DNA of 29,423 nt from Clostridia bacterium (GCA_028279945.1 JANQMT010000149.1:1-29423); one strand, 5' to 3'. Numbered from the stretch's first letter, positions 5,444 to 26,829 are shown. A program made the numbers and translations. Notes: generated by a model not told the origin, from the sequence alone.

Positions 5444-7745
<2,302 letters not shown>

Positions 7746-7763
<18 letters not shown>

Positions 7764-9961: not shown

Positions 9962-10708
9962 TTAAAAGCCACTAATGTCTTGTGCAAGTCCGATGACCAT
10001 CATTTCTGATACACATCCGCCTTTTGTCAATGCGCATGCCTGATAAACCATATCTGCGAAGTGTTCAGGACGAACTGCCATTTCCTCATCCCATTCAAAC
10101 TTACTGATGCCTTCGGCAGATTGGAAGTTAGTATTTGAGCCACCTGGTACAAGTAAGGTGACACTTATGCCATGAGGTCTAAGCTCTGTATATAGGCATT
10201 TTGTGAAAGCATTTACTGCTGCCTTTGCAGCCGAGTATACCGACCAGCCGGGCCATGAACGGCGGTCGCAAACACTGGAGACGTTAAGTATTTTACCGTA
10301 GCCTTGTGCTTTAAACTGTGGAGCAAAGGTTCTACAGCTCATGATGGTGCTTGTTAAGTTTAAATCAATGATCTTTTTGTTCATTTCATCGTCCATTTCT
10401 TCAATGGGAGCAACTCTTACTGCTCCTCCAGCATAGTTGAGTAGAAAATCAACCTTTCCAAAGTTGTCTATGCATGCCTTTAGAGCTGCTTCAAAGGTTT
10501 CGGGCTTTGTAGCATCGCCTTTGAAAGCAATAACCTTTGAACCATGTGCTTCGCAGTTCTTGACTGTGTCTGCCAATGCCTCTTCATTAATATCAAACAG
10601 CACCAGATTACATTGATCCAGCTTTGCAAACAACTCAGCGGTTGCTTTTGAAAAGCCTGAAGCAGCTCCCGATAAAACAGCAACCTTCCCTTTAAAAGAT
10701 TCACCCAT
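9962..10708 (-). CDS. SDR-family NAD(P)-dependent oxidoreductase
   Basis: N-terminus KGKVAVLSGAASGFSK (Rossmann fold), YxxxK present. RBS AAGGAGGG. Confidence 0.85.
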   Translation of the reverse strand: MGESFKGKVAVLSGAASGFSKATAELFAKLDQCNLVLFDINEEALADTVKNCEAHGSKVIAFKGDATKPETFEAALKACIDNFGKVDFLLNYAGGAVRVAPIEEMDDEMNKKIIDLNLTSTIMSCRTFAPQFKAQGYGKILNVSSVCDRRSWPGWSVYSAAKAAVNAFTKCLYTELRPHGISVTLLVPGGSNTNFQSAEGISKFEWDEEMAVRPEHFADMVYQACALTKGGCVSEMMVIGLAQDISGF

Positions 10709-10837
10709 GAATAACCCTCCTTACCAATTATAGTAAATAATTGATCTTTTGAGATTATACTAACATATTCCATGACAAAGGTCAACAGCTCGTTTTTTAT
10801 CTTTGACATTTTTTATGAAAAAGTTCAATTGTTGAGA

Positions 10838-10866
10838 TTGACAAATGTCATAAATTAATTTAGAAT
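10838..10866 (+). promoter_or_regulatory. Promoter (-35 TTGACA, 17 bp, -10 TAGAAT) overlapped by palindrome TGACAAATGTCA (10839-10850)
   Basis: Perfect 12-bp palindrome, one of three copies in the window. A degenerate second half-site TTGACATTTT lies at about 10802. Confidence 0.55.
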
Positions 10867-10916
10867 TTAATTGAACAAATGTTTTGAAAAATGTTAATGA
10901 AGGCGAGGTCGGTGAT

Positions 10917-11699
10917 ATGTTAGTTAATTTGAATGGTAAGGTCTGTGTTGTTACAGGTGCAGCTAGAAGTATAGGTCTGGGTATTGCAGAGAAGTATTGC
11001 GAAGACGGAGCTAAGGTAGCAATGATCGACATTAATCCTGAGGTTGTATATGAGGCGGATAGAATTTCTAATGAATATAAGGCAGATGTAAAAGGCTATG
11101 TATTAAATATTACTAATAGAGAAGAGGTACTCAAATGTTTTGATAAGATTGTTGAAGAGCTTGGTCCTATATTTGCCTTGGTTAACAATGCAGGAATTGT
11201 AGATCAACGTTCCTTTGAGGAAATCACCGAAGATATGATTAACAAACAGATGGCAGTAAATGTGAATGGAACGCTTTTCTGTACCCAAGGTGCAGTAAAA
11301 AGTATGAAGGATCAGAACGAAGGCAGAATTATAAATTTTTCATCCAAATCAGGTAAAACAGGGTCAGCCCTAATGGCCCATTATTCTGCAGCAAAGGGAG
11401 CAATTATTGCCCTTACACATGCCCTTGCATTTGAATTGGCTTCCGATAATATTCAAGTGAATTGCATCTGCCCCGGTATAACTGATGCTACGGGTGTTTG
11501 GAATCAAGTAAGTTCAGGATATACAAAAAACCTAAACTTGTCTCGAGAAGAGGTCATAAAGCAATTTACAGCAAAAATTCCAATGAAGAGACTAACAAAT
11601 ATTGAAGATATTGTTGAGATGGTTTACTTCCTTACTCTAAAGGGAGATTATATGACCGGTCAAGCATATAACATTACAGGAGGAAGGGAGGTGCACTAA
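10917..11699 (+). CDS. SDR oxidoreductase, sorbitol-6-phosphate 2-dehydrogenase (SrlD)-like
   Basis: GKVCVVTGAARSIGLG, GRIINFSSKSGKTGS...YSAAK and C-terminal TGQAYNITGG resemble SrlD. Probable start is ATG 10917 rather than TTG 10884. Confidence 0.8.
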   Translation: MLVNLNGKVCVVTGAARSIGLGIAEKYCEDGAKVAMIDINPEVVYEADRISNEYKADVKGYVLNITNREEVLKCFDKIVEELGPIFALVNNAGIVDQRSFEEITEDMINKQMAVNVNGTLFCTQGAVKSMKDQNEGRIINFSSKSGKTGSALMAHYSAAKGAIIALTHALAFELASDNIQVNCICPGITDATGVWNQVSSGYTKNLNLSREEVIKQFTAKIPMKRLTNIEDIVEMVYFLTLKGDYMTGQAYNITGGREVH

Positions 11700-12746
11700 A
11701 TGAGTCATATGATAGGGAAGTGTGTGAAATATTATGCCCCAATGGATGTTCGAATTGAGCCGTTGATGGAAATACCTCAGATTTGTGATGGAGAAGTTTT
11801 GATAAAAATCGAAGCCTGTGCCATCTGTGGAACGGATATAAAATCCTTTGTCAATGGCAATCCCAGAATCATGCCTCCAAAGGTAATGGGGCATGAGCTT
11901 TGTGGAAAGATTGTGGCAATGGGCAGTGGCGTTGATAACTATAAAATAGGTCAGAGGGTAACGATGGCTACTACCATAGGCTGCGGCAAATGCGACTACT
12001 GCAAAAGTGGAAAGACAAATCTTTGTAGAAGTGCAGAGGCAATGGGCTTTCATTACCCCGGGGCGATGGCACCTTATGTGGTTATACCGGAAAAGGCGGT
12101 AAGACAAAAACATTTGGTGGATGTGGGAGATCTGGATGTCGTTATTGCAAGTCTAAGCGAGCCCCTATCCTGTGCTATGAATAATATAAGTCGTGTACCA
12201 GATGAAGCACTGGGAAGTGTACTTGTTATTGGCCTTGGGCCACTTGGAATGCTGCATGCTGTTTCCTTAAGGGAAAAAGGAGTCAAAAACATAGTGTGCG
12301 TAGCAAGACCGGGTAAAAGAGCGGATATGGCAAAGCAATTGGGCTTTGATATAGTGCTTTCGCCTCATGAGATAGATGAAAAATATAAGGAGCTTACAAA
12401 TGGCGAAGGATTTGATTTGATTATCATAACAGCTCCCAGCAACGAGATGCAAGGGAAGGTACCAATGTATGCTAAGAAAGGAGGGTACGTATCCTATTTT
12501 GCCAGTCTCCCTGTTGGAGATGAAATGCTGACAATGAACAGTAGGATTATCCATTATAATGAATTGGTGCTTTACGGTACTTCGGATTCTACAGTACAGC
12601 ACGTGAAAGCAGCAGTTCACCTTTTAAGAAAAAATCCGGAAGCCTTCAAGCCTTTGATTACACACGTTATGCCATTTGAAGATTTTCATAAAGCTATGGA
12701 TGAGATAAAGTTGAGAAATGCCGTTAAAATAGTACTTGTTCCATGA
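11700..12746 (+). CDS. Zn-dependent medium-chain alcohol/polyol(-phosphate) dehydrogenase
   Basis: CAICGTDIK, GHE, CGKCDYCKSG structural-zinc motif, GLGPLG NAD site. The start abuts the upstream stop. Confidence 0.85.
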   Translation: MSHMIGKCVKYYAPMDVRIEPLMEIPQICDGEVLIKIEACAICGTDIKSFVNGNPRIMPPKVMGHELCGKIVAMGSGVDNYKIGQRVTMATTIGCGKCDYCKSGKTNLCRSAEAMGFHYPGAMAPYVVIPEKAVRQKHLVDVGDLDVVIASLSEPLSCAMNNISRVPDEALGSVLVIGLGPLGMLHAVSLREKGVKNIVCVARPGKRADMAKQLGFDIVLSPHEIDEKYKELTNGEGFDLIIITAPSNEMQGKVPMYAKKGGYVSYFASLPVGDEMLTMNSRIIHYNELVLYGTSDSTVQHVKAAVHLLRKNPEAFKPLITHVMPFEDFHKAMDEIKLRNAVKIVLVP

Positions 12747-12941
12747 TACTATGGGTAGTGTAAAGTAAACTATAAATTACTGGCGACTGACGCCACCTTT
12801 GACAGTATAGAAAAACAATGCTCTGTAGTTTTTACCGATAGCGAAGAACTCAAGAACAGGTAGAGAAATCGACTTCAGACTATAGCACTTTAACATTGTT
12901 TTTCTGTACCATCAAGAGTAAATACGAGGGGGAATAAGTAA

Positions 12942-14003
12942 ATGAAACTTGTAGGTATAGGTGATTTGTTCATACCAAAGGAATACATTGAGAAGGGCTT
13001 TCAATCCTATTGGGAAATGAATGTTGAGGTTGAAACCGTTGAATGGATGCTTGCAGATTTTAATGAGCTTCAAAAAATTAATTTAATGGTGGAAAAAGGA
13101 GGCTGTGAGGCTTATGAGCCGCCTCAATATATTTTCGATGCCTGTGAGGATGCAGATATTATTATCACCCAGTTTTGCACCATTACAAAAAAATTGATGG
13201 ATCATTGCAAACACCTAAAGATCATCGGCGTTTTAAGAGCAGGTATAGAAAATGTTAATCTTGCATATGCAAGTGAGAAAAATATACTCGTCTACCATAC
13301 ACCGGGGAGAAATGCAGATGCAGTTGCTGATTTTACGATAGGTTTATTGCTTTCAGAATGCAGAAATATTGCCAGAGGCCATATGGGATTGAAAAATGGA
13401 AAATGGATTAGAGAATATCCCAATTCCTTTTATATTCCGGATCTTCCAGGGAAAACGGTGGGTATCGTAGGCCTTGGAGAGATAGGTCAAAAGGTTGCCA
13501 AGCGGCTTGTTGGCTTTGATGTAAAGCTATTGGGCTATGATCCCTATGTTTCAAATCCTCTCTATGGAATAAAGATGTGTTCTCTTGAAGAACTGATGGC
13601 AAAATCGGATTTTGTTACTGTTCACGTCAGACATACATCGGATACCGAGAATCTGATAAATCGAAAGTTAATCTCTAGAATGAAACCTACCGCCTATCTT
13701 ATCAATACTTCACGATCGGTCATAGTTGATGAAGATGCTCTTTTTGAAGCTTTAAGAGACAAAAAAATAGCAGGTGCCGGCTTAGATGTATTTAATGTTG
13801 AGCCGCCCACCAAAGATTATCCCATTGTTGCAATTGATAATGCAACCGTGACACCTCATATGGCAGGGGGCTCCAAGGATGCGTTTTTGAATTCACCTAA
13901 GAAGCTGGCGGAAGGGCTAAAGGGTTATTGGAGCAAAGATGAGTCAAGGTATCTGGTAAACAAGGGCTTGCTTGGAAAAATGACGGCTACAACGAAAAGA
14001 TAA
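12942..14003 (+). CDS. D-isomer-specific 2-hydroxyacid dehydrogenase family protein
   Basis: GIVGLGEIGQKVAKRL NAD-binding motif and a catalytic His region. RBS GAGGGGGA. Confidence 0.8.
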   Translation: MKLVGIGDLFIPKEYIEKGFQSYWEMNVEVETVEWMLADFNELQKINLMVEKGGCEAYEPPQYIFDACEDADIIITQFCTITKKLMDHCKHLKIIGVLRAGIENVNLAYASEKNILVYHTPGRNADAVADFTIGLLLSECRNIARGHMGLKNGKWIREYPNSFYIPDLPGKTVGIVGLGEIGQKVAKRLVGFDVKLLGYDPYVSNPLYGIKMCSLEELMAKSDFVTVHVRHTSDTENLINRKLISRMKPTAYLINTSRSVIVDEDALFEALRDKKIAGAGLDVFNVEPPTKDYPIVAIDNATVTPHMAGGSKDAFLNSPKKLAEGLKGYWSKDESRYLVNKGLLGKMTATTKR

Positions 14004-14019
14004 TTGGAGGTAAGGGGCT

Positions 14020-14316
14020 ATGTATGCAGCAAAAATTATAGGTACAGTAGTATGTACCCGAAAGGATGAAAAATTAAGTGGCAGGACGTTACAGGTGGTA
14101 CAGCCCGTTAGTCTCTTGACACTGGAATATGAAGGTAAACCTTCTGTAGCCATTGATTCCGTCGGGGCAGGAATGAATGAAATCGTTCTGGTTGTAGGAG
14201 GAAGTTCTGCAAGGCAGACAACAGTTACATCCAATACACCTGTGGATGCCACAATCATGGCCATTGTAGACCTGATTGATATAGATGGCCAAAAGGTATT
14301 CGATAAAGGTCAATAA
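14020..14316 (+). CDS. BMC vertex (pentamer, BMC-P) protein, EutN/PduN/CcmL family, copy 1
   Basis: MYAAKIIGTVVCTRKDEKL start is typical of EutN/CcmL. RBS GGAGGTAAGGGG. Confidence 0.85.
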   Translation: MYAAKIIGTVVCTRKDEKLSGRTLQVVQPVSLLTLEYEGKPSVAIDSVGAGMNEIVLVVGGSSARQTTVTSNTPVDATIMAIVDLIDIDGQKVFDKGQ

Positions 14317-14333
14317 TCTAAATTGTAGGGGGA

Positions 14334-14609
14334 ATGTCCATGTTTCTAGCTAAAATTATTGGAACAGTTGTTGCAACCCAAAAGGATGAATCATTGAGAA
14401 GTGTAAAGCTGCTGGTAATACAGCCCATTGATTCCTTTGGAAAAGAAGCAGGTTCTCCTGAGGTAGCTGTGGACACCATTGGCGCAGGCTATGGAGAAAT
14501 CGTATTTTGTGCAAAAAGCAAGGAAGGGGCTATGCCCTTACCTGACCCTAATGCGCCGGTGGATGCAGGAATTATTGGAATTGTTGATTGCATCTATAAT
14601 AATCGTTAA
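14334..14609 (+). CDS. BMC-P vertex protein, copy 2
   Basis: LAKIIGTVVATQKDESL, paralog of the previous gene. Confidence 0.85.
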   Translation: MSMFLAKIIGTVVATQKDESLRSVKLLVIQPIDSFGKEAGSPEVAVDTIGAGYGEIVFCAKSKEGAMPLPDPNAPVDAGIIGIVDCIYNNR

Positions 14610-14622
14610 AGGATGATTTGCC

Positions 14623-14919
14623 ATGATATTTGCTCGAGTAGTTGGAAATATGGTTGCAACCCAAAAAAATGAAAATCTGAGAGGTTCAAAATTAATGATT
14701 CTTCAACCTTTGGACACAAAAGGGAAAAGTGTCGGAAAACAGATCATAGCAGTGGACGCAGTAGGAGCGGGAATAGGAGATATAGTCATCGCCATTGCTG
14801 AAGGGGGTTCGGCAAGGCAGGTGTATAAGGCAAAACCCATGGCACCCATTGATACAATTATTGCGGGGATTGTTGACATCATTGAGACAGAAGATGGAAG
14901 CATAAGCTTATATGATTAA
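14623..14919 (+). CDS. BMC-P vertex protein, copy 3
   Basis: IFARVVGNMVATQKNENLRGSKL, a third tandem paralog. Confidence 0.85.
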   Translation: MIFARVVGNMVATQKNENLRGSKLMILQPLDTKGKSVGKQIIAVDAVGAGIGDIVIAIAEGGSARQVYKAKPMAPIDTIIAGIVDIIETEDGSISLYD

Positions 14920-14933
14920 AATGAGGTGAAAAA

Positions 14934-15794
14934 ATGGAAATGAATAAGTTGATTGAGGCCATTACCCAAGAGGTATTAAAAGAACTGGGTGAAGACGACC
15001 TTTTTAAAGTCGGCGGTATCTCCATCTCAAAGGAGGTGCTACCCAACGGTGTTGATATAAACAATCTGGCGAAGACAGTAGACCACACTGTTTTAAAGCC
15101 AGACACGACTAGGAACACTATAGAAAAATTTTGCAAAGAAGCAGCGGAATGGAGGTTTGCATCCGTCTGTGTGAATCCAACCCATGTAAAGCTGGCTGCA
15201 AGCCTTTTAAAGGAGACTGATGTAAAGGTATGCACCGTAATAGGTTTTCCTTTGGGAGCTAACACACCCTTTGTGAAAGCAATGGAAGCAAGGGATGCAA
15301 TAGCCAATGGTGCACAGGAGGTTGATATGGTGATTAACATAGGCGCCTTGAAGGATGGTGAATATGATCTTGTTTCAAAGGACATAAAGGCTGTCGTGGA
15401 TGCAGCGGCCGGTCAGGCGCTGGTAAAAGTGATTATCGAGACCTGCCTGTTGACAGAGCAAGAGAAGATAAAAGCCAGTTTATTGGCTAAAAATGCAGGA
15501 GCAGATTTTGTAAAGACTTCTACCGGAATGAGCACCGGAGGTGCTACGGTGGAAGATATCGCTCTTATGAGAAAAACAGTAGGCCCCCAAATGGGTGTTA
15601 AAGCTTCCACAGGAGTAAATAATCGTGAAATCGCACTGAACCTGATAAGAGCAGGAGCGACAAGGCTGGGTACTAGCAAGGGTATCATCATTCAAACCGG
15701 ACAAAGCCCTGAACAACCAAGCTGTGTAAACTGCGGCAACTGCAAATCAGGCTGTCCTACAGGAAATGCACATGTTGTGAAAGACAACTATTAA
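14934..15794 (+). CDS. deoC: Deoxyribose-phosphate aldolase (DERA) with N-terminal amphipathic helix and C-terminal CxxCxxCxxxCP tail
   Basis: [10 protein letters not shown] and MGVKASTG (the two catalytic Lys regions), TVIGFPLG. N-terminal [15 protein letters not shown]-terminal [12 protein letters not shown]. Confidence 0.85.
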
Positions 15795-15798
15795 AATA

Positions 15799-17292
15799 AT
15801 GTCAGCTGAAATAGGGGATGTGAATAATATGGTTGTCAATGAAATTGATCCGGTGAAAAGGTCCGTAAGAGAAGCCAATAAACTGATGGATGAAGCTTAT
15901 GAAGCTCAGAAACTGATAGCTGACTATGACCAGCAGAGAATCGATAGAATTGTTGCGGCAATGGTCCATGCAGGCTATGAGAATGTAAGGAAATTGGCTT
16001 ATATGGCCGTTGAGGAATCCAAAATAGGTGTTGCAGAAGACAAGGTGATTAAAAATGTGTTTGCAACAAAAAATATTTATGAATATATCAAGGATATGAA
16101 AACTGCTGAAATCATTAGTGAGGACAGAGAACAAGGGATAATAGAGATTGCAGCTCCTATGGGTGTCGTAGTAGGATTGATTCCCACTACTAATCCTACC
16201 TCAACCGTAATGTATAAGGCAATCATATCAATAAAATCAAGAAATGCCATCGTTTTATCCCCTCATCCAAGATCGGTGAGATGCTGTATGGAAGCTGCAA
16301 GGATTATGGAAGAGGCTGCTATTGCAGCCGGAGCGCCAAAGGGAATCATCAGATGCATGTCCATATGCTCTAAGGATGCAACCGACACACTGATGCACCA
16401 TCCAAAGGCAGCGGTCATATTGGCTACAGGCGGTAGTGCTATGGTTAAGGCAGCATACAGCTCAGGTACACCAGCATATGGAGTGGGACCGGGAAATGTT
16501 CCGGCTTTTATAGAACGGTCTGCAAATATATCTGATGCCGTCAGCAAAATATTTAAAAGCAAAACCTTCGATAATGGTACCATCTGTGCTTCGGAGCAGG
16601 CTATCGTAACAGAGGCTGTTATTGCTGAAAAAGTAAAGGCTGAGGTAATAAAAAGAGGCGGATATTTTGTTGTTGGTTCAGACATGGAAGCTCTGGACAA
16701 AACCATCATACTTCAAGATGGAGGGGTTAATCCGAAGGTAGTAGGTCAATCCCCCACAGCCATAGCTAAATTGGCAGGGATTGAAATACCTGAGGGAACA
16801 AAAATTATCTGTGTAGAGCTAAAGGGAGTAGGAAAGAAATACCCTCTTTCGGCAGAAAAGCTTTGTCCTGTATTGGCGTTCTATGTTATAGACGATTGGG
16901 AAGCTGGCTGTGAGCGGTGCATTGAACTGCTGAATTATGGTGGTCTAGGGCATACTATGGTGATACATTCACACAACGATGCAATCATAAGGGAGTTTGG
17001 ACTGAAGAAACCGGTTTTTAGAATCTTGGTAAATACGCCTTCCTCTCAAGGGGCTATAGGATATACCACCGGTCTCGCACCGGCTCTGACCCTAGGCTGC
17101 GGCACATGGGGAGGCAGTATCACCTCAGACAATGTTTCGCCCTTGCACTTGATAAACAGAAAGCGGATCGCATATCATCAACCTGCAAGTGAAGAGAAGG
17201 CAAAGTCTAAAGGTACTAGATATGTATATACATTGACTGAAATAAATAAGGCTATAGATAATTATAATAAAGGAGGCTATTGGAATGAGTGA
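15799..17292 (+). CDS. CoA-acylating aldehyde dehydrogenase (PduP/EutE family)
   Basis: [10 protein letters not shown] catalytic Cys, [23 protein letters not shown]. The alternative start ATG 15829 is possible. Confidence 0.85.
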
Positions 17293-17596
17293 AACAATAG
17301 GCATGATAGAAACAAAAGGCTTGGTAGGAGCAATAGAAGCTGCCGATGCAATGGTAAAAGCGGCAAATGTTCAATTGATGGGAAAGGAAATCGTGGGCGG
17401 TGGATTTGTAATGGTAATCGTAAAAGGAGATGTGGGAGCAGTTAAGGCTGCCACAGATGCAGGTGCTGAAGCAGCCGGAAGAGTAGGCGAACTGAAGTCC
17501 GTTCATGTGATACCACGCCCGCATAATGAGGTTGCAGTGATACTTCCCAAATACGAGACTGTTAAGGCCGGACCAAAAACAAAAGCAACGACTTAA
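17285..17596 (+). CDS. BMC hexamer shell protein (BMC-H, PduA/EutM family), copy 1
   Basis: [25 protein letters not shown]...GDVGAVKAA...HVIPRPH. Confidence 0.9.
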
Positions 17597-17637
17597 TATG
17601 GATAGCCACGTAGTTGAAAGATAGGAGGTAAAATATA

Positions 17638-17907
17638 ATGAGTGAAGCAATTGGAATGATTGAAACCAAAGGCTTGGTTGGAGCCATAGAGGCAGCAGAT
17701 ACTATGGTTAAGGCTGCCGGTGTCAAACTAATAGGTAAGGAATGTGTTGGAAGTGCTTTGGTAACGGTTATGGTAAGAGGAGACGTAGGAGCGGTTAAAG
17801 CTGCTACCGATGCAGGTGCAGCAGCGGTACAAAGCGTTGGAGAGTTGAAATCCGTTCATGTGATTCCAAGGCCTCATGCTGAGGTAGAATCCATATTACC
17901 AAAGTAG
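17638..17907 (+). CDS. BMC-H shell protein, copy 2
   Basis: Same signature. RBS GGAGG. Confidence 0.9.
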
Positions 17908-17944
17908 TATTATGTTTGAATAGATGAATTAGGAGGGTTTTAAT

Positions 17945-18217
17945 ATGGAAAATGCATTGGGAATGATAGAGACAATCGGTGAGGTAGGAGCCATAGAAGC
18001 AGCAGACGCTATGGTAAAGGCTGCTAATGTAAAGCTTATGGGCAAAGAGAAGATAGGCAGCGGCTATGTAACAGTAATGGTAAGAGGTGATGTGGGTGCC
18101 GTTAAGGCTGCAACAGAAGCCGGTGCGGCAGCTGCGCAAAGAGTTGGGGAGCTGAAATCCGTTCATGTGATTCCAAGACCTCATAAGGATGTAGAGAGCA
18201 TATTACCTGAAAAATAA
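17945..18217 (+). CDS. BMC-H shell protein, copy 3
   Basis: Same signature. RBS GGAGGG. Confidence 0.9.
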
Positions 18218-18251
18218 GGTACGGACCAGAGAAATAATAGGCGGTGGGTAA

Positions 18252-19121
18252 ATGATGGAATTGGAATTGATAAAAAAGATCATAATGGCGGTATTGTCAA
18301 ATATAAATACCTACTCCTTTGAAAGCTATATGGAAAAGCCTATTTCAATAGGCGTTTCAAACAGACATCTGCACCTTTCGAAAGAGCACCTGGAAACACT
18401 ATTTGGATTTGGATATCGGTTAAAGAACCATAAAGAACTGTCTCAACCGGGACAATATGCCTGTGCAGAGACAGTCATACTGGTTGGACCCAAGGGCAGT
18501 ATTGAACAGGTAAGAATATTAGGGCCTGCGAGATCCCAGACTCAGGTGGAGGTTTTGAAAAGTGACTGTTTTCATCTTGGTGTGAATGCACCTGTCCGGG
18601 AGTCGGGAAAGCTAAGAGAATCAGGCGGTATCACCATCGTTGGACCTAAGGGAACGGTGCAGCTGAACGAAGGTGTAATCGTTGCACAACGTCACATTCA
18701 TATGACTGCCAAGGATGCCGCTGTCTATGGTGTTGTGGATGGGCAGTGCGTAAGGCTGAAGGTGGGCAAAGAAAGAGGTTTGGTTTTTGATAATGTCATT
18801 GTGAGAGTAAGCGATAGCTTTGCCCTAGAATATCATATGGACATGGATGAAGCCAATGCTTCAGGTATTCAGACAGGGGATCAGGCATTTTTACTGACTC
18901 CGCTGTGTGAAAATCTGCCGGTTGATAAACCGGCGTATAGCTTTATTGGAGACAATCTGGAACAAAGTGAAGAAAAGGAACCCTTGAGGCTTGTTACGGA
19001 TGAAACCGTTAGGGAGGCTTGGAAAAAAAGAGAAAAACTTAAAATAAGCAGTACAACTATTATTACACCCCTTGCAAGGGACACCATAAAGGAGCTCAAA
19101 GTGGAAATGTTGGGCTCTTAA
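18252..19121 (+). CDS. pduL: Phosphotransacylase PduL/EutD type, with N- and C-terminal extensions
   Basis: GVSNRHLHLS and VIVAQRHIHMT double motif. Extra N-terminal LELIKKIIMAVLSNI helix and a ~75-aa C-terminal tail. Confidence 0.8.
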   Translation: MMELELIKKIIMAVLSNINTYSFESYMEKPISIGVSNRHLHLSKEHLETLFGFGYRLKNHKELSQPGQYACAETVILVGPKGSIEQVRILGPARSQTQVEVLKSDCFHLGVNAPVRESGKLRESGGITIVGPKGTVQLNEGVIVAQRHIHMTAKDAAVYGVVDGQCVRLKVGKERGLVFDNVIVRVSDSFALEYHMDMDEANASGIQTGDQAFLLTPLCENLPVDKPAYSFIGDNLEQSEEKEPLRLVTDETVREAWKKREKLKISSTTIITPLARDTIKELKVEMLGS

Positions 19122-19166
19122 ATATAACCTGAGATTTCCAATAATAAACACTGTGAGGTGAGCGAA

Positions 19167-19454
19167 TTGGCAAAAGTCATCACTCTAAAGGATATTATAA
19201 AGTATAGTGGTTTAAAAACCATAGAGCTGCCGGTTGATACTTTACTGACGCCTTCCGCAAAGGATTGGGCACATGAAAACGGGGTGCAGATTGTATTAGA
19301 TCAGGGAGATGAAAAAGCAGAACTACTTCAAAGAACCATTCAAACAACTTTGGACAATATTAATAAGTCGGGGAACTTGATTACAAGAAATGAATTGGTT
19401 AGAATAGTTACAACAAGCCTTGAAAGAATGGGTTGTGTTATAGAGAATATTTAG
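19167..19454 (+). CDS. Small hypothetical protein (95 aa, TTG start) sharing a TLLTPSAKD-type motif with the PduL tail
   Basis: SD GAGGTG 6 nt before TTG 19167. The track's GTG 19158 has no SD. Confidence 0.4.
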   Translation: MAKVITLKDIIKYSGLKTIELPVDTLLTPSAKDWAHENGVQIVLDQGDEKAELLQRTIQTTLDNINKSGNLITRNELVRIVTTSLERMGCVIENI

Positions 19455-19467
19455 GGGAGAGGTTGCT

Positions 19468-20946
19468 ATGAGTAAATACTTGCTAAGTGTAGACAATGGT
19501 CTTACAACGACAAAGGCAGTGATTTTTACACTTGAGGGCAAGGAAGTTGCATCCAGCCATGTGAATACATTGATCGAAAACAATGGTGATTTTGCCGAAA
19601 TTGATATGGAGCTGCAGTGGGCAAACACTGCAAAGGTCATTAAGAAATGTATATCAAAGTCAGAGGTAGATTCCCGAGAGATTGTTGGAGTTGGCAACAG
19701 TGGACATGGTGCAGGGCTATACTGCCTTGATGAAAGCAATCGCCCTGTTAGAAAAGCCATATCCTCTATGGATGCAAGAGCCAGCAGCATTATAGAAAAT
19801 TGGACCAAGAATGGTTTGAATCCATACAGCAGGATATATCAAAGCTTTTGGAGTGGGCAGGCCATACCTTTGTTGAGTTGGTTGAAAAACAATGAGCCCG
19901 AAAACTATGGAAATATTAGAAGCATCCTTATGGTAAAGGATTGGATCATATACTGTCTTACCGGTAGTGTAGGGATAGAATATACAGATGCCAGCAATTC
20001 CGGATTGATCAATCCTGTGGATAAGAAAGTGGATAAAGAATTGTTTGGAATGTTTGAAGTGGAAGAAGTTTATGAAAAAATTCCCAAACTTCGTAAAACA
20101 ACCGATATCGCAGGTTATGTAACAAAAAGGGCTGAAGAAGAAACCGGTCTAATGGTTGGTACGCCTGTAATAGGTGGGGTATTTGATTGTATTGCTTGCG
20201 CACTTGGCAGCGGTGTCTATGACAAGGATAAATATAGCATCATTGCAGGAACATGGAATATAAACTCAGGAATAGAGAATGCACTAATCAGTCCCCATGA
20301 CACAGTAAAATGCTCGCTTTTTATTGATATAAACAAGTATTTCTACACTGAATCCAGTGCTACCTCAGCAGTAAATCTAAGCTGGTTTATTGATCATGTT
20401 ATTGGAGGCTTCAACATCTCAAACACATCGGATGCGTGTATATATAAAGAAATTGAGGAAAGGATTAAAGAAATCGATCCAAGGTCTTCCGATATCATTT
20501 ATATGCCCTTTCTTTATAAATCCCATCTAGCTAATATGCAGGGAGCTTTTTTTGGGCTAAGACCTGAATACAATATCTTTCATATGATTAGAGGCATATA
20601 TGAAGGCGTTGCATTTGCGCATAAAATGCATATTGATAATCTAAAAAACTCCGGCATAACACGAAAAAGTGCAGTACTGTCAGGGGGAGCGTCAAAAAGT
20701 CCTCTGTGGAGTCAAATGTTTGCAGATGTTTTGAATATTGAAGTGGCTACGGCAGATGCTACTGAGGTTGGGGCTTTAGGCTGTGCTGTATGTACCTCTG
20801 TAGCTTTGGGGATTCATAAGAGCATCAAAGAAGCTATTGCTGTAATGGTGAAAGAAAAGAAGCATTTTTATCCGGAAAGCATAAATGAAGACATCTATGA
20901 TATGAAGTATCATTTATTTAAAGATATCATTCGAAAATTCATTTAA
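19468..20946 (+). CDS. FGGY-family carbohydrate kinase (xylulokinase/ribulokinase-like)
   Basis: N-terminal LSVDNGLTTTKAVIF, two actin-like ATPase halves, C-terminal GGASKSPLWSQMFADVL. RBS AGGGGAGAGG. Confidence 0.85.
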   Translation: MSKYLLSVDNGLTTTKAVIFTLEGKEVASSHVNTLIENNGDFAEIDMELQWANTAKVIKKCISKSEVDSREIVGVGNSGHGAGLYCLDESNRPVRKAISSMDARASSIIENWTKNGLNPYSRIYQSFWSGQAIPLLSWLKNNEPENYGNIRSILMVKDWIIYCLTGSVGIEYTDASNSGLINPVDKKVDKELFGMFEVEEVYEKIPKLRKTTDIAGYVTKRAEEETGLMVGTPVIGGVFDCIACALGSGVYDKDKYSIIAGTWNINSGIENALISPHDTVKCSLFIDINKYFYTESSATSAVNLSWFIDHVIGGFNISNTSDACIYKEIEERIKEIDPRSSDIIYMPFLYKSHLANMQGAFFGLRPEYNIFHMIRGIYEGVAFAHKMHIDNLKNSGITRKSAVLSGGASKSPLWSQMFADVLNIEVATADATEVGALGCAVCTSVALGIHKSIKEAIAVMVKEKKHFYPESINEDIYDMKYHLFKDIIRKFI

Positions 20947-20991
20947 TAAAGTGATTAGTTTTCTCAGAGACGATGAAAAGGAGGAATTTTC

Positions 20992-21753
20992 ATGGATTTA
21001 AACCTGAGAGGAAAGGTTGCTATCGTTACTGGCGGGAGCAGCGGGCTTGGAGAAGCCATTTGCGACATCCTATCGATGGAGGGCTGCAACGTAGTGGTCA
21101 ATTATATTGTCGATGAAGCCGGTGCCTTTCGATTTGTTGATCGATTGAATGACAAGAGCGATGCAAAAGCAATACCCCTATATGGTGATATTACAAAGGC
21201 ACATGATATTGAGAACACTATTGCCAGAACCATTGACATATACGGGAAAGTAGATATATTGGTCAATAATGCAGGCGTATGGCCTACCGAATGGGTTGAA
21301 AGCATGAGCGATGAGGAATGGGAGAAGACTTTAAAGATTAACCTGACAGGCCCTTTTATGTTCAGTAAGAGAGTCGTACAGCATCTTATTGGAAGGAAAA
21401 GTCCGGGAAAAATCATAAACATTGTTTCTCAGGCTGCCTTTCATGGGTCTACCAGTGGCCATGCACACTATGCAGCAGCAAAGGGAGGGCTGGTTACCTT
21501 CACGGTATCTCTGGCAAGAGAGGTGGCAAAGCATAAGATAAATGTTGTAGGCGTAGCCCCTGGCATGATGAGGACGCCTATGAACAAGAAAGAGTTGGAA
21601 GAAAGAGAAGGAGAATATATTAAGAGGATACCTTTGGGTCGGATATCTGATCCTAAGGAAGTTGCCTATACGGTTGCTTTTCTTGCTTCTGACAAGGCAG
21701 ATTATATCACCGGTGCAACGATAGATGTTACAGGTGGAATGCTCATGAGATGA
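20992..21753 (+). CDS. SDR-family oxidoreductase (FabG-like)
   Basis: GKVAIVTGGSSGLG, NNAG, YAAAK. RBS AAAGGAGG. Confidence 0.85.
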   Translation: MDLNLRGKVAIVTGGSSGLGEAICDILSMEGCNVVVNYIVDEAGAFRFVDRLNDKSDAKAIPLYGDITKAHDIENTIARTIDIYGKVDILVNNAGVWPTEWVESMSDEEWEKTLKINLTGPFMFSKRVVQHLIGRKSPGKIINIVSQAAFHGSTSGHAHYAAAKGGLVTFTVSLAREVAKHKINVVGVAPGMMRTPMNKKELEEREGEYIKRIPLGRISDPKEVAYTVAFLASDKADYITGATIDVTGGMLMR

Positions 21754-21773
21754 TTCATTTTACTTCAAGAGAT

Positions 21774-21802
21774 TTGACAAATGTCATGAGATTATTTATA
21801 AA
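21774..21802 (+). promoter_or_regulatory. Promoter (-35 TTGACA, 17 bp, -10 TATAAA) overlapped by palindrome TGACAAATGTCA (21775-21786)
   Basis: Second copy of the 12-bp palindrome, upstream of the regulator gene. Confidence 0.5.
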
Positions 21803-21920
21803 ATTTAGAATTTCGTTGAAATATTTTTATATATATGGTATTAATATTACTATAATCTTGTAATTGGCTAATAATTTTGATATTTCAAGAAATAAAATGT
21901 TATGATAAGAGGAATCGAAT

Positions 21921-22883
21921 ATGGACGCAAAATTTGATATTTCACTTATGGTTAAGGTTGCACAAATGTACTATATGGATGAAATGAAGCAGGAAAAAAT
22001 TGCAAAGGAGCTTCAGATTTCCAGGTCGCTTATTTCAATGATTTTGACAGAGGCTAAGGACGTAGGTATCGTCCAAATTACAATCAAAAATCCTCAACTC
22101 AATAATGATGAGCTTTCCAGAGAGTTTGAAAGTAAGTTCAACCTCAAAAAATGCATTATTGTGCCCACGGCTGTTCAGGATCCTAATACACTGAGAAAGC
22201 TGGTGGCACAGAGAGCTGTAGATGTATTTAATCAAGAAATAAAAGAATCATCTAATGTTGGTATTTCATGGGGTAGAACCTGCTATGAGTTTATAAACCA
22301 ATTTGTAAGTGAATCAGTTTATAAGAATGTTTCTGTTGTACCATTAATAGGAGGAAGCAACCAGACGGCACATTATTTTCAATCCAATGAAATGGTACGG
22401 CGTTTTGCTGAGAAGCTTGGGGCAACCCCTCATTTTATCTATGCACCCAGCTTGAATTCATCCATTGAAGAAAAACTGCTTTTTAAAAAAAGCTCAAATA
22501 TGCAGGTGATACTGGAGAAGTGGGCTGATATGGATATCATTGTGGCGGCTGTTGGGACACTTCCTGATTTTAATTCCCATGAGCGTGAAACTTATATCGG
22601 AGAATCGGAGATATTTAGAATCCTTGAAAAAAGCGAAGCTGTGGGGGATATTTGTGCAAGGTATTTTGATAGGGATGGTCAATTTATCGAGGACAAATAC
22701 TTTGAAAGAATTCTTGGAATATCCCTTGATGAAATTAGAAGAGCGCATACAACCATTGGGTTTGCTATAGGATTAGAAAAGGTAAATGCCATACTTGGAG
22801 CATTGAAAGCCAATATTTTCAACATTTTTATTACTGATGAACAAACAGCAAAAAATGTATTGAAGGCTGAAATACAAAAATAG
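21921..22883 (+). CDS. SorC/DeoR-family sugar-phosphate-responsive transcriptional regulator (Bacillus DeoR-like)
   Basis: N-terminal HTH VKVAQMYYMDEMKQEKIAKELQISRSLISMIL, sugar-binding domain motifs GISWGRT, VVPLIGG, GDICARYFD. Clearly alignable to B. subtilis DeoR from memory. Confidence 0.85.
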   Translation: MDAKFDISLMVKVAQMYYMDEMKQEKIAKELQISRSLISMILTEAKDVGIVQITIKNPQLNNDELSREFESKFNLKKCIIVPTAVQDPNTLRKLVAQRAVDVFNQEIKESSNVGISWGRTCYEFINQFVSESVYKNVSVVPLIGGSNQTAHYFQSNEMVRRFAEKLGATPHFIYAPSLNSSIEEKLLFKKSSNMQVILEKWADMDIIVAAVGTLPDFNSHERETYIGESEIFRILEKSEAVGDICARYFDRDGQFIEDKYFERILGISLDEIRRAHTTIGFAIGLEKVNAILGALKANIFNIFITDEQTAKNVLKAEIQK

Positions 22884-22907
22884 ATCACATATTTTTTTGT
22901 AACACTT

Positions 22908-22946
22908 AAACACCTCAACAGCTTTATAAGAGGTGTTTTTTTGTTT
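22908..22946 (+). terminator. Rho-independent terminator (AAACACCTC-N13-GAGGTGTTT then TTTTTTGTTT)
   Basis: 9-bp perfect stem plus T-tract right after the regulator gene. Confidence 0.65.
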
Positions 22947-23062
22947 GGGAGGCATGTTGCCCAGCCCATGGCTTTATCTCAGAAAAGAGCCGTGACAAAA
23001 TTTATGAAATATTCCAAACATTATATTGACATATGTTATGGATTTAGTTATAATTAAGAAAA

Positions 23063-23091
23063 TTGACAAATGTCATGTAAAAATTTAATAA
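23063..23091 (+). promoter_or_regulatory. Promoter (-35 TTGACA, 17 bp, -10 TAATAA) overlapped by palindrome TGACAAATGTCA (23064-23075)
   Basis: Third palindrome copy. A degenerate copy TGACATATGTTA lies at 23023-23034, 41 bp upstream. Confidence 0.5.
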
Positions 23092-23103: not shown

Positions 23104-24186
23104 ATGAAAAAGAGCATTTCTACCATCATGTGTTTGGCATTACTGGTTGGATTAATATCAATGGCTGGATGTGCACCCAACGAGCAGAGCGATGCAACTG
23201 ATACACCTCCAACAGCAGAAGCGGAGCCCCTGCAAATTGGTTACTTCGTATCTGCATTAAACAACGGATTCCATCAGGCCCATGCAACTTGGGCGAAGAA
23301 CTATGCTAAAGAAGAGTATGGTGCTGAGGTACAAGTATTCGATGGCAAGTCGGATGCAAATGTTATGGCACAGAACTTTGATCAAGCCGTAGCAATGGGA
23401 ATGGATATGGTATCCCTTCACATTTGGCAAGGTGAGTCTATCAAGGTAGCAGCAAAAGAAGCTATCCAGAATGGAATGGCTGTAACGACATATTTTGATA
23501 AGATACCCGACATAGCAAATCCACACATCATGCCCGGTGAAGCAGAAATCTCAGAGCAAATGGGCAAAATTGCTGCAGAGCAGTGGAAAAAAGCCCACCC
23601 AGACAAACCAATTGTATTTGTTTGTATCGGATGGCCTGAGCATGAAGGCGTTACCACTGGTCGAACAAATCCTTTCATTAAAGGCGTGCAGAGCGTAGAT
23701 CCAAATGCAAAATATTTAGGCTGTATGGATGCAAGCAAAGGTGCGGATGCTGCGTTTAAAGTCACGCAAGATTTGATTCAAGCAAATCCTGATTTAAATA
23801 TTATTTACTCTGAGGCTGCAGACTTGACAGTTGGCGTACTTCCTGCGTTACAGCAGCTTGGCAGAGGAAAAATGGATAACGGCGTGCCGCTTACTGAAAT
23901 TTTATGCAGCGTGGATTGTCCCGAAAACGAGTTGATCGCATGCTTTGATCCAAGCAGCTCGCTAAAAATGTCAATGGGTCTTCCTCCTAAGGAAACGGCT
24001 ATAGTAAGAATAGATACCATGATGAAAATAAAGAATGGTGAATTAAAACAAGAAGATGCAAGCTTAGATACAATTTATGTACCTAACAAACTAATCGGTT
24101 ATTGGACGCAAAAAGATGTAAATGAAGCTGTAGATTGGTATAATGAGCAGTTTGGAGCGAGCTTGGCGGTACCTGAATACAATTAA
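23104..24186 (+). CDS. Sugar ABC transporter substrate-binding lipoprotein (PBP1, ribose/galactose-binding type)
   Basis: Lipoprotein signal LVGLISMAGCAPNE. RBS AGGGGGA. Confidence 0.8.
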   Translation: MKKSISTIMCLALLVGLISMAGCAPNEQSDATDTPPTAEAEPLQIGYFVSALNNGFHQAHATWAKNYAKEEYGAEVQVFDGKSDANVMAQNFDQAVAMGMDMVSLHIWQGESIKVAAKEAIQNGMAVTTYFDKIPDIANPHIMPGEAEISEQMGKIAAEQWKKAHPDKPIVFVCIGWPEHEGVTTGRTNPFIKGVQSVDPNAKYLGCMDASKGADAAFKVTQDLIQANPDLNIIYSEAADLTVGVLPALQQLGRGKMDNGVPLTEILCSVDCPENELIACFDPSSSLKMSMGLPPKETAIVRIDTMMKIKNGELKQEDASLDTIYVPNKLIGYWTQKDVNEAVDWYNEQFGASLAVPEYN

Positions 24187-24313
24187 TAACATACGGTGAA
24201 ACCCAGTGTAGTTGACACAAATTATCGGGAGGGACTTCATTAAGGAATTCCTCCCGATAGAATTATACAGCATCTACCGGTTGTCAAATAGCAAAGATGG
24301 GGGAGCGGAAGTC

Positions 24314-25816
24314 ATGAACGACTATGGATTACAAATCAAAAATCTTACCAAGGTTTTTCCGGGAGTACGTGCAATTGACGATGTAAGCTTTAATATACAC
24401 AGAAATACCGTTCATTGTCTGGTTGGCGAAAATGGTGCAGGGAAATCCACCTTAATAAAGATACTTACCGGTGCCTATGCCAGAACAAGCGGGACTATTC
24501 TTCTGAATGGGCAGGAATACGTTGCTCATAACCCGAAAGAAGCTAAGAACAAGGGGATCAGCACACTCTTTCAGGAGCTTAATGTGGTTGACCAGCTTAC
24601 GGTTAAAGAGAATCTAACCCTTGGAATAGAGGATACGACATATGGCTTTTTAAGGAAGTCTGATAAGGTAAAAAAAATGCTGGAAGTCTTAAAAGACATT
24701 GAACCCAGCATTGATCCGAAACAAAAAGTGGGAAGGCTTAGCGTAGCAAAGAAGCAAATAGTAGAAATCGCAAAAGCGGTTGCATCGGAGGCGGATATCA
24801 TTATTATGGATGAACCTACCGCTGCAATATCCGAAGGTGAAATCAAAAGACTTTTTAAAATTATAAAGGCCCTTAGAGAAAAAAATGTAACTGTGATATA
24901 TATATCACACAGATTGGATGAGATATTTGAATTAGGCGATAACGTTACGGTAATGCGTGACGGTAAACATATAGAAACAAAAAAAGTATCTGATGTTAAA
25001 GACCGTTCAGAGCTGATTAAAATGATGATAGGAAAGACGGTCATAGAGTCTTATATTCCAAAAGATCAAAAGCCGGACAACGTGCTTTTTGAGGCAAATC
25101 ACCTTTCCAATGAAAAGCTTCATGATATTTCATTTGATGTCAAAAAGGGTGAAATTGTCGGCTTCTATGGGTTGGTAGGAGCAGGGAAAACAGAGTTGGC
25201 ACGTGCCATTTATGGTGCAGATAATTATACCGGCTGCATTATATACAAGGGCAAGAAGCTTGCAGATTCCACGCATAAGGCCATAAAGGAAGGCATCGTA
25301 CTGGTCCCTGAAGAGAGAAGGACAGAAGGGGTATTTACGATACTAACCATTCGGGAAAATATCCCTATCATGAATATGGGCAAAATATCAAAGGCTGGTT
25401 TTGTAAACCGTTTAAAAGAGAGAAAAGCTGCCAATGAATTTATTACAAAATTAAATATCGTAACAAATAGCATGGAAAAAGAAACAGCAAAGCTTTCAGG
25501 AGGAAATCAGCAGAAAGTGGTATTTTCTAAATGTCTATTTGCAGATGCAGATCTTCTAATCCTTGATGAACCCACACGAGGTATTGATGTAGGCGCCAAA
25601 GGTGAGATTTATAGTATTATACGTCAATTGTCAAATCAAGGCAAATCCATTATGATGTTTTCCTCTGAATTACCCGAGATAATCAATAATTGCGACAGAA
25701 TATTTTTACTATATGATGGTCGAATAAAGGCAGAAATCAATAACGGCACTGATATCAACGGTGAAATGATTATCCATATCGTAACGGGGGGGAATAGTCG
25801 TGCAAAGCTTGAATAA
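24314..25816 (+). CDS. Sugar ABC transporter ATP-binding protein with tandem ATPase domains (RbsA/MglA type)
   Basis: Two Walker A motifs (GENGAGKST, GLVGAGKTELA), LSGGNQQK signature. RBS GGGGGAGCGGAAG before ATG 24314. The track's 24212 start is an in-frame upstream extension. Confidence 0.85.
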   Translation: MNDYGLQIKNLTKVFPGVRAIDDVSFNIHRNTVHCLVGENGAGKSTLIKILTGAYARTSGTILLNGQEYVAHNPKEAKNKGISTLFQELNVVDQLTVKENLTLGIEDTTYGFLRKSDKVKKMLEVLKDIEPSIDPKQKVGRLSVAKKQIVEIAKAVASEADIIIMDEPTAAISEGEIKRLFKIIKALREKNVTVIYISHRLDEIFELGDNVTVMRDGKHIETKKVSDVKDRSELIKMMIGKTVIESYIPKDQKPDNVLFEANHLSNEKLHDISFDVKKGEIVGFYGLVGAGKTELARAIYGADNYTGCIIYKGKKLADSTHKAIKEGIVLVPEERRTEGVFTILTIRENIPIMNMGKISKAGFVNRLKERKAANEFITKLNIVTNSMEKETAKLSGGNQQKVVFSKCLFADADLLILDEPTRGIDVGAKGEIYSIIRQLSNQGKSIMMFSSELPEIINNCDRIFLLYDGRIKAEINNGTDINGEMIIHIVTGGNSRAKLE

Positions 25817-26816
25817 AAGTAATACGGCAGGTTCTAAAATTAGCAACCTAACCTTTGTTAATCTGTCAATGCTATTGGTTTTGGCAGTCATTTTTACCAT
25901 TGCTTCTTTGGTTGTTCCAAGATTCTTTGACATCAACAACATATCCAATCTGATTGCACAACAAGCAGAAATCATCATACTCAGCATCGGTGTAACCTTT
26001 TTACTGATATCGGGCTATTTTGATATGTCCGTAGGTGGCATCATATCAATGGCTGCAGTTCTTTCGGCATATTTTTGTCAGGTACAGGGTGCGGCAGCGA
26101 ATGACTTAGGCAGCGGACTTGGCTTGGATTATGGTACGGCAATATTTTTAACCTTGTTGTGTTGTATGATCATGGGAGCTCTCAACGCATTGCTGATTGT
26201 AAGGCTGAGAGTGAATTCGGTTATTGCAACACTAGGTACAATGGCGGTTTCAAGAGGCATTGCGATGATTGTTGCAAAAGGTGCCCAAAGGATAACCGGC
26301 TTGCCGGCTCACTTTAAAATAATTGGTCAATTTACCATCATAGGAACCATAAATCTGGCAGTCGTGATTATGCTTATATTGCTGCTCATCGCATTGATTA
26401 TAGAGAATAAAACGGTATTTGGCAGAAGGACTTATCTAATAGGTGCCAATCAAACAGCCGCACGTTTATCCGGTATAAAGGTCGATAAGCATGTTACCAT
26501 GCTTTATATCTTCAGCTCGTTTCTGGCGGGGATAGCGGGAATTATCATGGCTTCAAGGTTCAACGCAGGTAACTGTACATTGGGTACCGGGTATGAGTTT
26601 GATGCGCTGGTCGTCACTGTTTTGGGTGGAACCAGTATTTTCGGCGGGTTTGGCTCTGTTACTTGTGCGGTAGTGGGTGCCTTTATCATCGGTATTCTTA
26701 GTACTTCAGTTAATATGCTTGGATTTCAGCCCTCTATGCAGATGCTGGTCAAAGGGTTTGTAATCATTGCTGCGATACTGGCACTGCGTTTAGCATTAAA
26801 TAAGAGAAATGTGTAA
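25800..26816 (+). CDS. Sugar ABC transporter permease (RbsC/AraH family), GTG start
   Basis: About 9 TM helices. RBS GGGGGGGA. Overlaps the ATPase stop. Confidence 0.85.
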   Translation: MQSLNKSNTAGSKISNLTFVNLSMLLVLAVIFTIASLVVPRFFDINNISNLIAQQAEIIILSIGVTFLLISGYFDMSVGGIISMAAVLSAYFCQVQGAAANDLGSGLGLDYGTAIFLTLLCCMIMGALNALLIVRLRVNSVIATLGTMAVSRGIAMIVAKGAQRITGLPAHFKIIGQFTIIGTINLAVVIMLILLLIALIIENKTVFGRRTYLIGANQTAARLSGIKVDKHVTMLYIFSSFLAGIAGIIMASRFNAGNCTLGTGYEFDALVVTVLGGTSIFGGFGSVTCAVVGAFIIGILSTSVNMLGFQPSMQMLVKGFVIIAAILALRLALNKRNV

Positions 26817-26829
26817 GGGGGTGGAAGAT

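Follow-up and report, generated by a model that had tools for sequence, protein, structure and literature searches.

A predicted operator of a SorC-family regulator embedded in the promoters of a sugar-catabolic and microcompartment locus of a Clostridia bacterium

A stretch of 29,423 nucleotides from a Clostridia bacterium (GCA_028279945.1, JANQMT010000149.1:1-29423; the whole stretch is called the window below) carries a sugar-catabolic and bacterial microcompartment (BMC) locus, in which the 12-mer TGACAAATGTCA recurs in promoter regions. This motif is very probably the operator of the SorC-family regulator encoded in the same locus, a protein of the Bacillus DeoR-like helix-turn-helix (HTH) subclass, as its distribution and the sequence of the regulator suggest. 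The 12-mer is the core of a longer predicted operator of 19–25 bp, which is built into sigma-70-type promoters and takes up their −35 box and spacer. Biologically, this would be a conventional local repressor circuit of the SorC/DeoR type with promoter-embedded predicted operators. The preliminary description of this DNA proposed an operator of the adjacent SorC/DeoR-type repressor, with autoregulation; the proposal is supported by the conservation of the motif across phyla, by predicted sites in front of the regulator’s own gene, by an invariant recognition helix, by the absence of another conserved regulator gene, and by likeness to the operator of Bacillus subtilis DeoR.

An exact search of the window found four copies of TGACAAATGTCA, at 7168–7179, 10839–10850, 21775–21786, and 23064–23075, whereas 0.01 copies are expected; none of 100 dinucleotide shuffles reached four. 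With up to two mismatches allowed, 17 matches were found versus 4.7 expected, and those added include 10773 (TGACAAAGGTCA), 10804 (minus strand), and 23027 (TGACATATGTTA). The preliminary description listed the last three exact copies, all of which were recovered, and overlooked the one at 7168. It also called the motif a perfect palindrome, which needs correction. The 12-mer is a 5+2+5 inverted repeat with the arms TGACA and TGTCA around a central AA, and the two central bases differ in its reverse complement, TGACATTTGTCA, so that each copy has two mismatches on the opposite strand. Each of the three intergenic exact copies has a T directly 5′, giving TTGACA, and −10-like hexamers lie 17 bp past it: TAGAAT at 10861–10866, TATAAA at 21797–21802, and TAATAA at 23086–23091. 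The degenerate copies reported upstream of the first and third of these sites are indeed present, at 10804–10815 (35 bp upstream) and 23027–23038 (37 bp upstream).

When 24 intergenic sites of the window and of related loci were aligned, conservation beyond the 12-mer could be seen: T at position −1, ATGGAAT directly 3′, and kTTA/TATAAT at the −10 position with 17-bp spacing are retained. The shorter conserved element is TTGACAnnTGTyATGGAAT, and the working operator consensus is TTGACAnnTGTyATGGAAnnnkTTA. The flanks of the copies do not align with one another. In an unbiased enumeration of dyads in the upstream regions of sorC, TGACA-N2-TGTCA came top among 5-bp arms, although just 4 of the 18 regions had it, TGTTA being the arm at most sites; the position weight matrix (PWM) test described below was judged more informative. 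Reading the motif as an RNA hairpin was dropped, since no hairpin can form from a 5-bp stem and a 2-nt loop. An Rfam search of the whole window returned no RNA families, and there is therefore no riboswitch alternative.

In total, six good operator copies and two weak ones can be noted in the window (Table 1). Four are located in the region between the divergent short-chain dehydrogenase (SDR) gene and the catabolic/BMC operon, one precedes the regulator gene, and three precede the ATP-binding cassette (ABC) transporter operon. They form the cluster O-div/O1a/O1b, to which a weak fourth copy can be added, the cluster O3c/O3a/O3b, and the single site O2. The distances between dyad centres are 31 and 35 bp in the first cluster and 34 and 37 bp in the second. 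O-div, on the minus strand, was missing from the preliminary list; the same arrangement is found in locus L004 (2588–2606, minus strand). O3c is conserved in L001 and partly in L002.

The two best sigma-70 matches within 9.9–24 kb are motif-bearing promoters, those of the transporter operon and of the catabolic/BMC operon. The motif had been placed at the −35 position of three promoters, each with a −10-like hexamer after 17 bp. The spacing holds at all three exact copies, and the placement stands for the catabolic/BMC operon and the regulator gene; the exact copy before the transporter operon, O3b, lies downstream of the promoter. The −35 box of the real transporter promoter is predicted to lie in the degenerate copy O3a, not in O3b, which comes just past the −10 box of this promoter, at approximately +3 to +21, and precedes the ribosome-binding site. 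Transcription is predicted to start at about 10873 for the catabolic/BMC operon, at about 21809 for the regulator gene, and, judging by the −10 box at 23049–23054, at about 23061 for the transporter operon. O3b is not a credible third promoter, because its “−10” TAATAA runs into the Shine–Dalgarno sequence.

A second conserved block before the regulator gene, at 21816–21858, contains TTGAAA, 17 bp, TG-n-TATTAAT, the palindrome GTATTAATATTAC, and TATAAT, and it could be an operator-free basal promoter. Its part at 21833–21858, which contains the palindrome, was considered as a shared operator and rejected: it is one of the other upstream blocks that the closest relatives L001 and L002 share with the window, and it is conserved nowhere else. 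The fourth exact copy of the 12-mer, at 7168, has neither the 5′ T nor the GGAAT extension and reads E-M-T-N-V-I-N in its open reading frame (ORF); it is probably outside the regulon.

Table 1. Predicted operator copies, promoters, and genes in the window (positions counted from its first letter).
Feature	Position	Strand	Basis and remarks
Orphan fourth exact copy	7167–7185	+	PWM 15.7 bits; coding, inside WYL/WCX regulator gene
Divergent short-chain dehydrogenase gene, predicted regulon member	9962–10708	−	Pfam adh_short
Divergent SDR promoter	TTGACC 10785–10780, 17 bp, TG-TAGTAT 10762–10757	−	Promoter scan
O-div (TTGACCTTTGTCATGGAAT)	10767–10785	−	PWM 21.1 bits; one mismatch to the 12-mer; overlaps −35 and spacer of the divergent SDR promoter
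O1a, auxiliary degenerate copy (TTGACATTTTTTATGAAAA)	10803–10821	+	PWM 15.8 bits; 35 bp upstream of O1b; no usable −10
O1b	10838–10856	+	Exact 12-mer; PWM 24.7 bits; fills −35 and spacer
Catabolic/BMC operon promoter, TTGACA-17-TAGAAT	10838–10866	+	11/12 promoter matches
Possible weak copy (TGAACAAATGTTTTGAAAA)	10872–10890	+	PWM 10.3 bits; about +1 to +20 of the operon leader; possibility only
Catabolic and microcompartment operon	10917–21753	+	Profile matches of ORFs
O2, predicted autoregulation site	21774–21792	+	Exact 12-mer; PWM 26.4 bits; fills −35 and spacer
Regulator gene promoter, TTGACA-17-TATAAA	21774–21802	+	Block invariant in the alignment of the window, L001, and L002
SorC-family regulator, DeoR (HTH) subclass, 320 aa	21921–22883	+	PF04198, E = 1.9e-60
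Terminator-like hairpin and U-run	22908–22943	+	−13.2 kcal/mol, z = −3.5; conserved in L001
O3c, weak upstream operator-like copy (GTGACAAAATTTATGAAAT)	22992–23010	+	PWM 10.2 bits; 34 bp before O3a
O3a (TTGACATATGTTATGGATT)	23026–23044	+	PWM 25.0 bits; fills −35 and spacer; invariant in L001 and L002
ABC-transporter operon promoter, TTGACA-17-TATAAT	23026–23054	+	12/12 consensus matches
O3b	23063–23081	+	Exact 12-mer; PWM 26.8 bits; invariant in L001 and L002
ABC sugar-transporter operon, predicted regulon members	23104–28622	+	Binding protein, ATPase, two permeases, xylose-isomerase-like TIM-barrel gene

A genome scan with an alignment of 30 regulator homologues yielded 18 loci. In these loci the regulator travels with genes for an SDR, a zinc-dependent alcohol dehydrogenase (Zn-ADH), a 2-hydroxyacid dehydrogenase (2HADH), an FGGY kinase, a further SDR, DeoC, and an ABC transporter, with or without a BMC shell. 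The PWM was built solely from the five best sites of the window, and matches scoring 14 bits or more were counted. Loci with regulators no more than 62% identical, 228 kb in all, contained 24 such matches, versus 1.7 ± 1.25 (maximum 5) in shuffles. All but one of the matches (23/24) are intergenic, and these precede SDR1, the divergent SDR gene, the regulator gene, the TIM-barrel gene, an ABC transporter, or the 2HADH gene where this heads the BMC operon. Operator copies precede the orthologues of the divergent SDR gene in L004, L006, and L010, and those of the transporter operon in L001, L002, and L006.

Orthologous loci of Bacillota, Spirochaetota, and Myxococcota, in DNA of about 30–74% GC, keep the motif at corresponding places in their promoters. 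Three more loci were fetched via individual orthologues. The sole matches in a contig of Anaeromyxobacteraceae (Myxococcota, 74% GC), TTGACAAACGTTATGACAAATGTGATAACA, are located in the 105-bp gap before SDR1-ZnADH-DeoC-sorC, and a Salinispira contig (61% GC) has one match in the same position; a regulator homologue of 53% identity in a different gene context has no motif match. A predicted site lies before the transcription unit of the regulator itself in 17 of the 21 loci with upstream sequence. In alignments of the closest relatives (L001 and L002), the operator blocks stand out as invariant islands. The element occurs as a near-perfect 24-bp palindrome, ATTCCATAACAAGTGTCATGGAAT, in L003 (5846–5869), and a second TGTyA arm follows 12 bp after the first in L009, L010, L139, and L143. 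Copies at positions other than promoters can also be noted, at 23063 in the window and at 2682 in L004.

When TTGACA hexamers in the window and the 18 loci were compared, NNTGTYA was found directly after 19 of 58 intergenic hexamers versus 2 of 201 coding ones. On these counts a generic promoter feature or a compositional accident is rejected, and the worry voiced in the preliminary description, that the motif belongs to a generic promoter consensus, is not borne out within this set. In the approximately 300 kb of the window and loci, high-scoring sites are confined to the regulon promoters, and one exact copy is in unrelated coding DNA. Searching metagenome contigs in the reverse direction, from the 19-mer TTGACANNTGTYATGGAAT, gave at least 120 matches, mostly chance or coding. 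Among the 120 matches listed, four or five (L025, L038, L111, L127, and possibly L103) directly precede the same catabolic/BMC genes, which are newly arranged there, as in L025 and L038. The motif strings were not found in the relevant papers of the literature searched.

Among the matches listed, the 19-mer TTGACAGATGTCATGGAAT was found at 9767–9785 of L135 and in about 12 other metagenome loci, inside a coding ORF (9506–10147 in L135). This recurrent ORF is abundant in gut metagenomes and was judged from its sequence to encode an Rpn-like nuclease/transposase. The coding match is unrelated and shows how easily the motif originates by chance at terabase scale.

The regulator contains a C-terminal NagB-like sugar(-phosphate)-binding domain (PF04198, residues 60–315), and its N-terminal DNA-binding domain has a weak match to a Sigma70_r4-type HTH. 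Its best solved relative is B. subtilis DeoR (8r7y), with which it aligns over the full length from residue 9, the ISR motif included (E = 5e-41); Klebsiella SorC is the second best. The alignment with CggR begins only at residue 48 and covers the effector domain only (E = 9e-11). These comparisons place the regulator in the DeoR (HTH) subclass, and not with the CggR winged-helix type; it is not the DeoR of Escherichia coli. It scored 232.5 bits with the NCBIfam equivalog model of DeoR (NF053881; cutoff 420) and 107.5 bits with that of LsrR (NF011947; cutoff 486), so it is an orthologue of neither. All 23 orthologues examined carry the same recognition helix, ISRSLISMILTEAK, in keeping with the unchanging operator core. 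Homologues of 50–78% identity number in the hundreds, and many are labelled “LsrR” in JGI annotations. The L006 locus encodes two paralogues (10001–10948 and 13163–14110) 2 kb apart, which are 57–58% identical to the regulator of the window; they share the recognition helix, and only the transcription unit of the second has an operator copy in front.

A tetramer of B. subtilis DeoR binds the footprinted dra-nupC-pdp operator, ATTGAACAAAATTTCAATTACCAATTTACATATGTTCAA, which extends from −60 to −21. The right half of this operator, TTTACATATGTTCAA, is located at and just downstream of the −35 hexamer, and DeoR also controls a DERA (deoxyribose-phosphate aldolase) gene (PMC11229326). This half-operator has ACATATGTT in common with TTGACATATGTTAT of the window. 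The two systems share the protein architecture, an operator (in the window a predicted one) that extends over the −35 region and spacer, and a DERA gene in the known or predicted regulon; the several copies in the window are comparable to the multiple half-operators bound by the DeoR tetramer. Of the evidence from outside the loci, the resemblance to the DeoR operator speaks most strongly for a protein of this class as the binder of the motif. The recognition helices differ, being ISRSLISMIL in the window and ISRPTVSRLL in DeoR: of the two base-contacting arginines of DeoR, R39 aligns with Met, while R34 is conserved (numbering inferred). The regulons differ as well, since that of the window is a set of polyol/sugar dehydrogenase, kinase, ABC-transporter, and BMC genes, whereas that of DeoR consists of nucleoside genes.

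Several observations weigh against assigning the motif to this regulator. One exact copy, at 7168, sits in unrelated coding DNA, though only about 0.01 chance copies are expected windowwide. No site was found near the regulator gene in L008, in L141/L142, or at the first L006 paralogue. The loci were collected through the regulator, and its co-occurrence with the motif is thus partly built in, while in the reverse metagenome search chance and coding matches predominated, and that search is weakly informative and not a specificity test. The arms TGACA/TGTCA with a 2-bp gap differ from the TTGAA-N6-TTCAA of DeoR, and the copies in the window are 31–37 bp apart, whereas the half-operators of DeoR and CggR are about 23 bp apart. 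The lysine of the covalent adduct with deoxyribose 5-phosphate (dR5P) in DeoR seems to be replaced by Ile in the window regulator; given this change and that of R39 to Met, dR5P should not be taken over from DeoR as the effector.

Some of these observations would fit another transcription factor, a global carbon regulator or one of the WYL-type proteins encoded upstream, that binds the motif while the SorC protein acts elsewhere; we regard this as quite improbable. The exact copy inside a WYL regulator gene, the SorC orthologues of L008 and L141 with no nearby site, and the partly circular selection of loci can be cited in its favour. However, no homologues of the WYL genes were found in the 18 genome loci, and WYL regulators were rejected as the binder, since they are not conserved with the motif; no other regulator genes are conserved in the core of the orthologous loci. 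The motif tracks the SorC orthologue, typically before sorC, over three phyla and the whole GC range given above, and it resembles a proven operator of the same protein subclass. It is very improbable that no specific factor is involved and that the copies are plain strong sigma-70 promoters (TTGACA and an AT-rich spacer) or duplicated promoter remnants, even though the left arm equals the −35 consensus, all copies are AT-rich, and the close relatives share further upstream blocks. The TGTYA arm is absent from 39 of the 58 intergenic TTGACA hexamers, the TGTyATGGAAT spacer is conserved in the 74% GC genome, the copies outside promoters and the 24-bp palindrome of L003 do not fit promoter remnants, the flanks do not align, and the matches far outnumber those in shuffles.

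The SorC-type protein might also bind the motif and mainly activate transcription, or act in both ways as Klebsiella SorC does, which we consider improbable. Some SorC-family members are reported as both activators and repressors, sites at −35 can serve class II activation, and the auxiliary copies at about −70 (10803 and 22992) are in activator-like positions. Repression is nevertheless favoured because the promoters, with a consensus −35 box, a near-consensus −10 box, and ideal 17-bp spacing, need no activator. Moreover, the copy downstream of the transcription start (O3b) is in a position typical of repression, and repressors, DeoR and CggR, are the nearest relatives that have been characterised.

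Under the preferred assignment, with the SorC-family protein as a repressor, the left arm of the operator would double as the −35 hexamer, and the remainder would fill the 17-bp spacer up to the −10 box. Without inducer, the regulator bound to its operators would exclude RNA polymerase from four promoters: those of the divergent SDR gene, the catabolic/BMC operon, the regulator gene, and the ABC-transporter operon. The regulator would thus repress its own gene (negative autoregulation). It probably acts as a tetramer, as do DeoR and CggR, and the spacing of 31–37 bp may allow cooperative binding or a roadblock in the O-div/O1a/O1b and O3c/O3a/O3b clusters; O3b, just past the transcription start, would be such a roadblock at the transporter operon. 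A phosphorylated compound formed in the pathway, probably a product of the FGGY kinase, may release the repressor. We infer binding, repression rather than activation, the oligomeric state, and the effector from sequence.

The catabolic/BMC operon encodes, in order, an SDR, a Zn-ADH, a D-2-hydroxyacid dehydrogenase, three BMC-P proteins, a DeoC aldolase (DERA), an acylating aldehyde dehydrogenase (AldDH), three BMC-H proteins, PduL, a 98-aa ORF, an FGGY kinase, and a further SDR. It likely starts with ATG at 10917 rather than with TTG at 10884. DeoC passes the DERA equivalog model TIGR00126 (286 bits, cutoff 117). A promoter of its own is required for the transporter operon, as the regulator gene is followed by a terminator-like hairpin and U-run. 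With its DeoC-type aldolase (PF01791), AldDH, PduL, and BMC-H/BMC-P shell genes, the locus resembles BMC loci of the sugar phosphate utilisation (SPU) type. An RpiB-type isomerase (PF02502) had no match among the ORFs of 9.9–28.6 kb and could be encoded elsewhere in the genome; it is stated to be common to all seven SPU subtypes (PMC8217296). The enzyme set suggests an imported polyol or ketose: besides an ABC importer and three SDRs, the locus encodes a 2HADH, a Zn-ADH, a TIM barrel like that of hydroxypyruvate isomerase, and an FGGY kinase with relatives in xylulokinase and autoinducer-2 (AI-2) kinase.

The window, L001, L002, L005, L012, and L018 contain shell genes. In L004, L009, L010, L139, and L143, the shell, AldDH, and PduL genes are absent, and the regulator, the operator, and the catabolic genes (DeoC sometimes) are kept. 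The microcompartment thus appears to be an optional extra on a pathway that is itself conserved.

Among other known systems, CggR/gapA of B. subtilis is similar in that a SorC-family, sugar-phosphate-responsive repressor is autoregulated and binds as a tetramer to tandem half-operators containing TGAC...TGTC elements (TGACGGGACGTTTTTTGTCA). However, CggR belongs to the winged-helix subclass of DNA-binding domains, and its operator is at +32 to +77, not at −35. In the lsr system of E. coli and Salmonella (AI-2 uptake), the SorC regulator LsrR likewise has as neighbours an FGGY kinase, a DeoC/LacD-family enzyme, and an ABC importer of the LsrB type, which has two permeases. The FGGY kinase of the window matches the AI-2 kinase model at 1e-62, but its score of 212 is below the cutoff of 528, and the aldolase is a true DERA by TIGR00126 and not LsrF. 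Other BMC regulators (PocR for pdu, EutR/EutVW for eut, and DeoR-family proteins in GRM5/PVM loci) are likewise locus-encoded and substrate-responsive, and control shell and enzyme genes; they belong to other protein families and act mostly by activation or antitermination.

SPU-type BMCs are reported to be among the most widespread types, while their function is still a hypothesis (PMC8217296). Neither a description of the regulation of SPU-type microcompartments nor an operator for an SPU-type locus was found in the literature searched. Within that literature, the predicted operator would be the first explicit regulatory handle on an SPU-like BMC locus, and it could lead to the inducer and, through this, to the substrate. 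The operator–promoter could be used as a reporter for the inducing substrate, and a motif scan could list the full regulon. Being compact, with a consensus sigma-70 core and hosts of about 30–74% GC, the operator–promoter could also be a portable inducible switch.

We propose tentatively, and with more doubt than belief, that the operator and regulator mark a cross-phylum regulon for an uncharacterised pathway of imported sugar or polyol catabolism, in which the BMC is optional and the operator geometry compact. The pathway may consist of the ABC importer, SDR, Zn-ADH, 2-hydroxyacid dehydrogenases, FGGY kinase, TIM-barrel isomerase, and DERA. If so, the SPU-like BMC would handle acetaldehyde from a specific imported carbohydrate, not from DNA-derived deoxyribose as currently proposed, and the inducer of the repressor would identify the substrate of the BMC. 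In addition, 12-bp dyads in tandem within about 25 bp would imply a DNA-binding geometry unlike that of DeoR and CggR, whose bipartite operators are 39–45 bp long.

Two WYL/WCX-type regulator genes are located 3–5 kb upstream of the sugar locus (5462–7763). The SorC protein had been described as the only regulator in the locus, which is true inside the sugar locus but not of the window as a whole. The ORF at 6753–7763, which contains the 7168 copy, encodes a full-length HTH-WYL-WCX-like protein, and 5462–6199 and 6302–6766 may be one WYL/WCX gene split by a frameshift. The PADLOC WYL model matches both genes, and the region looks like a small defence or signalling-type islet.

No real Pfam match was obtained for the 98-aa ORF at 19158–19454, which has PduL and the FGGY kinase on either side; its position is kept in BMC-containing loci with 24–53% identity, and it may encode a BMC-associated accessory protein. 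Another ORF, of 207 aa (28796–29419, minus strand) and with no Pfam match, recurs near related loci at 63–66% identity, namely in L002 (18288–18824), L005 (1108–1659), and L017 (5628–6197).

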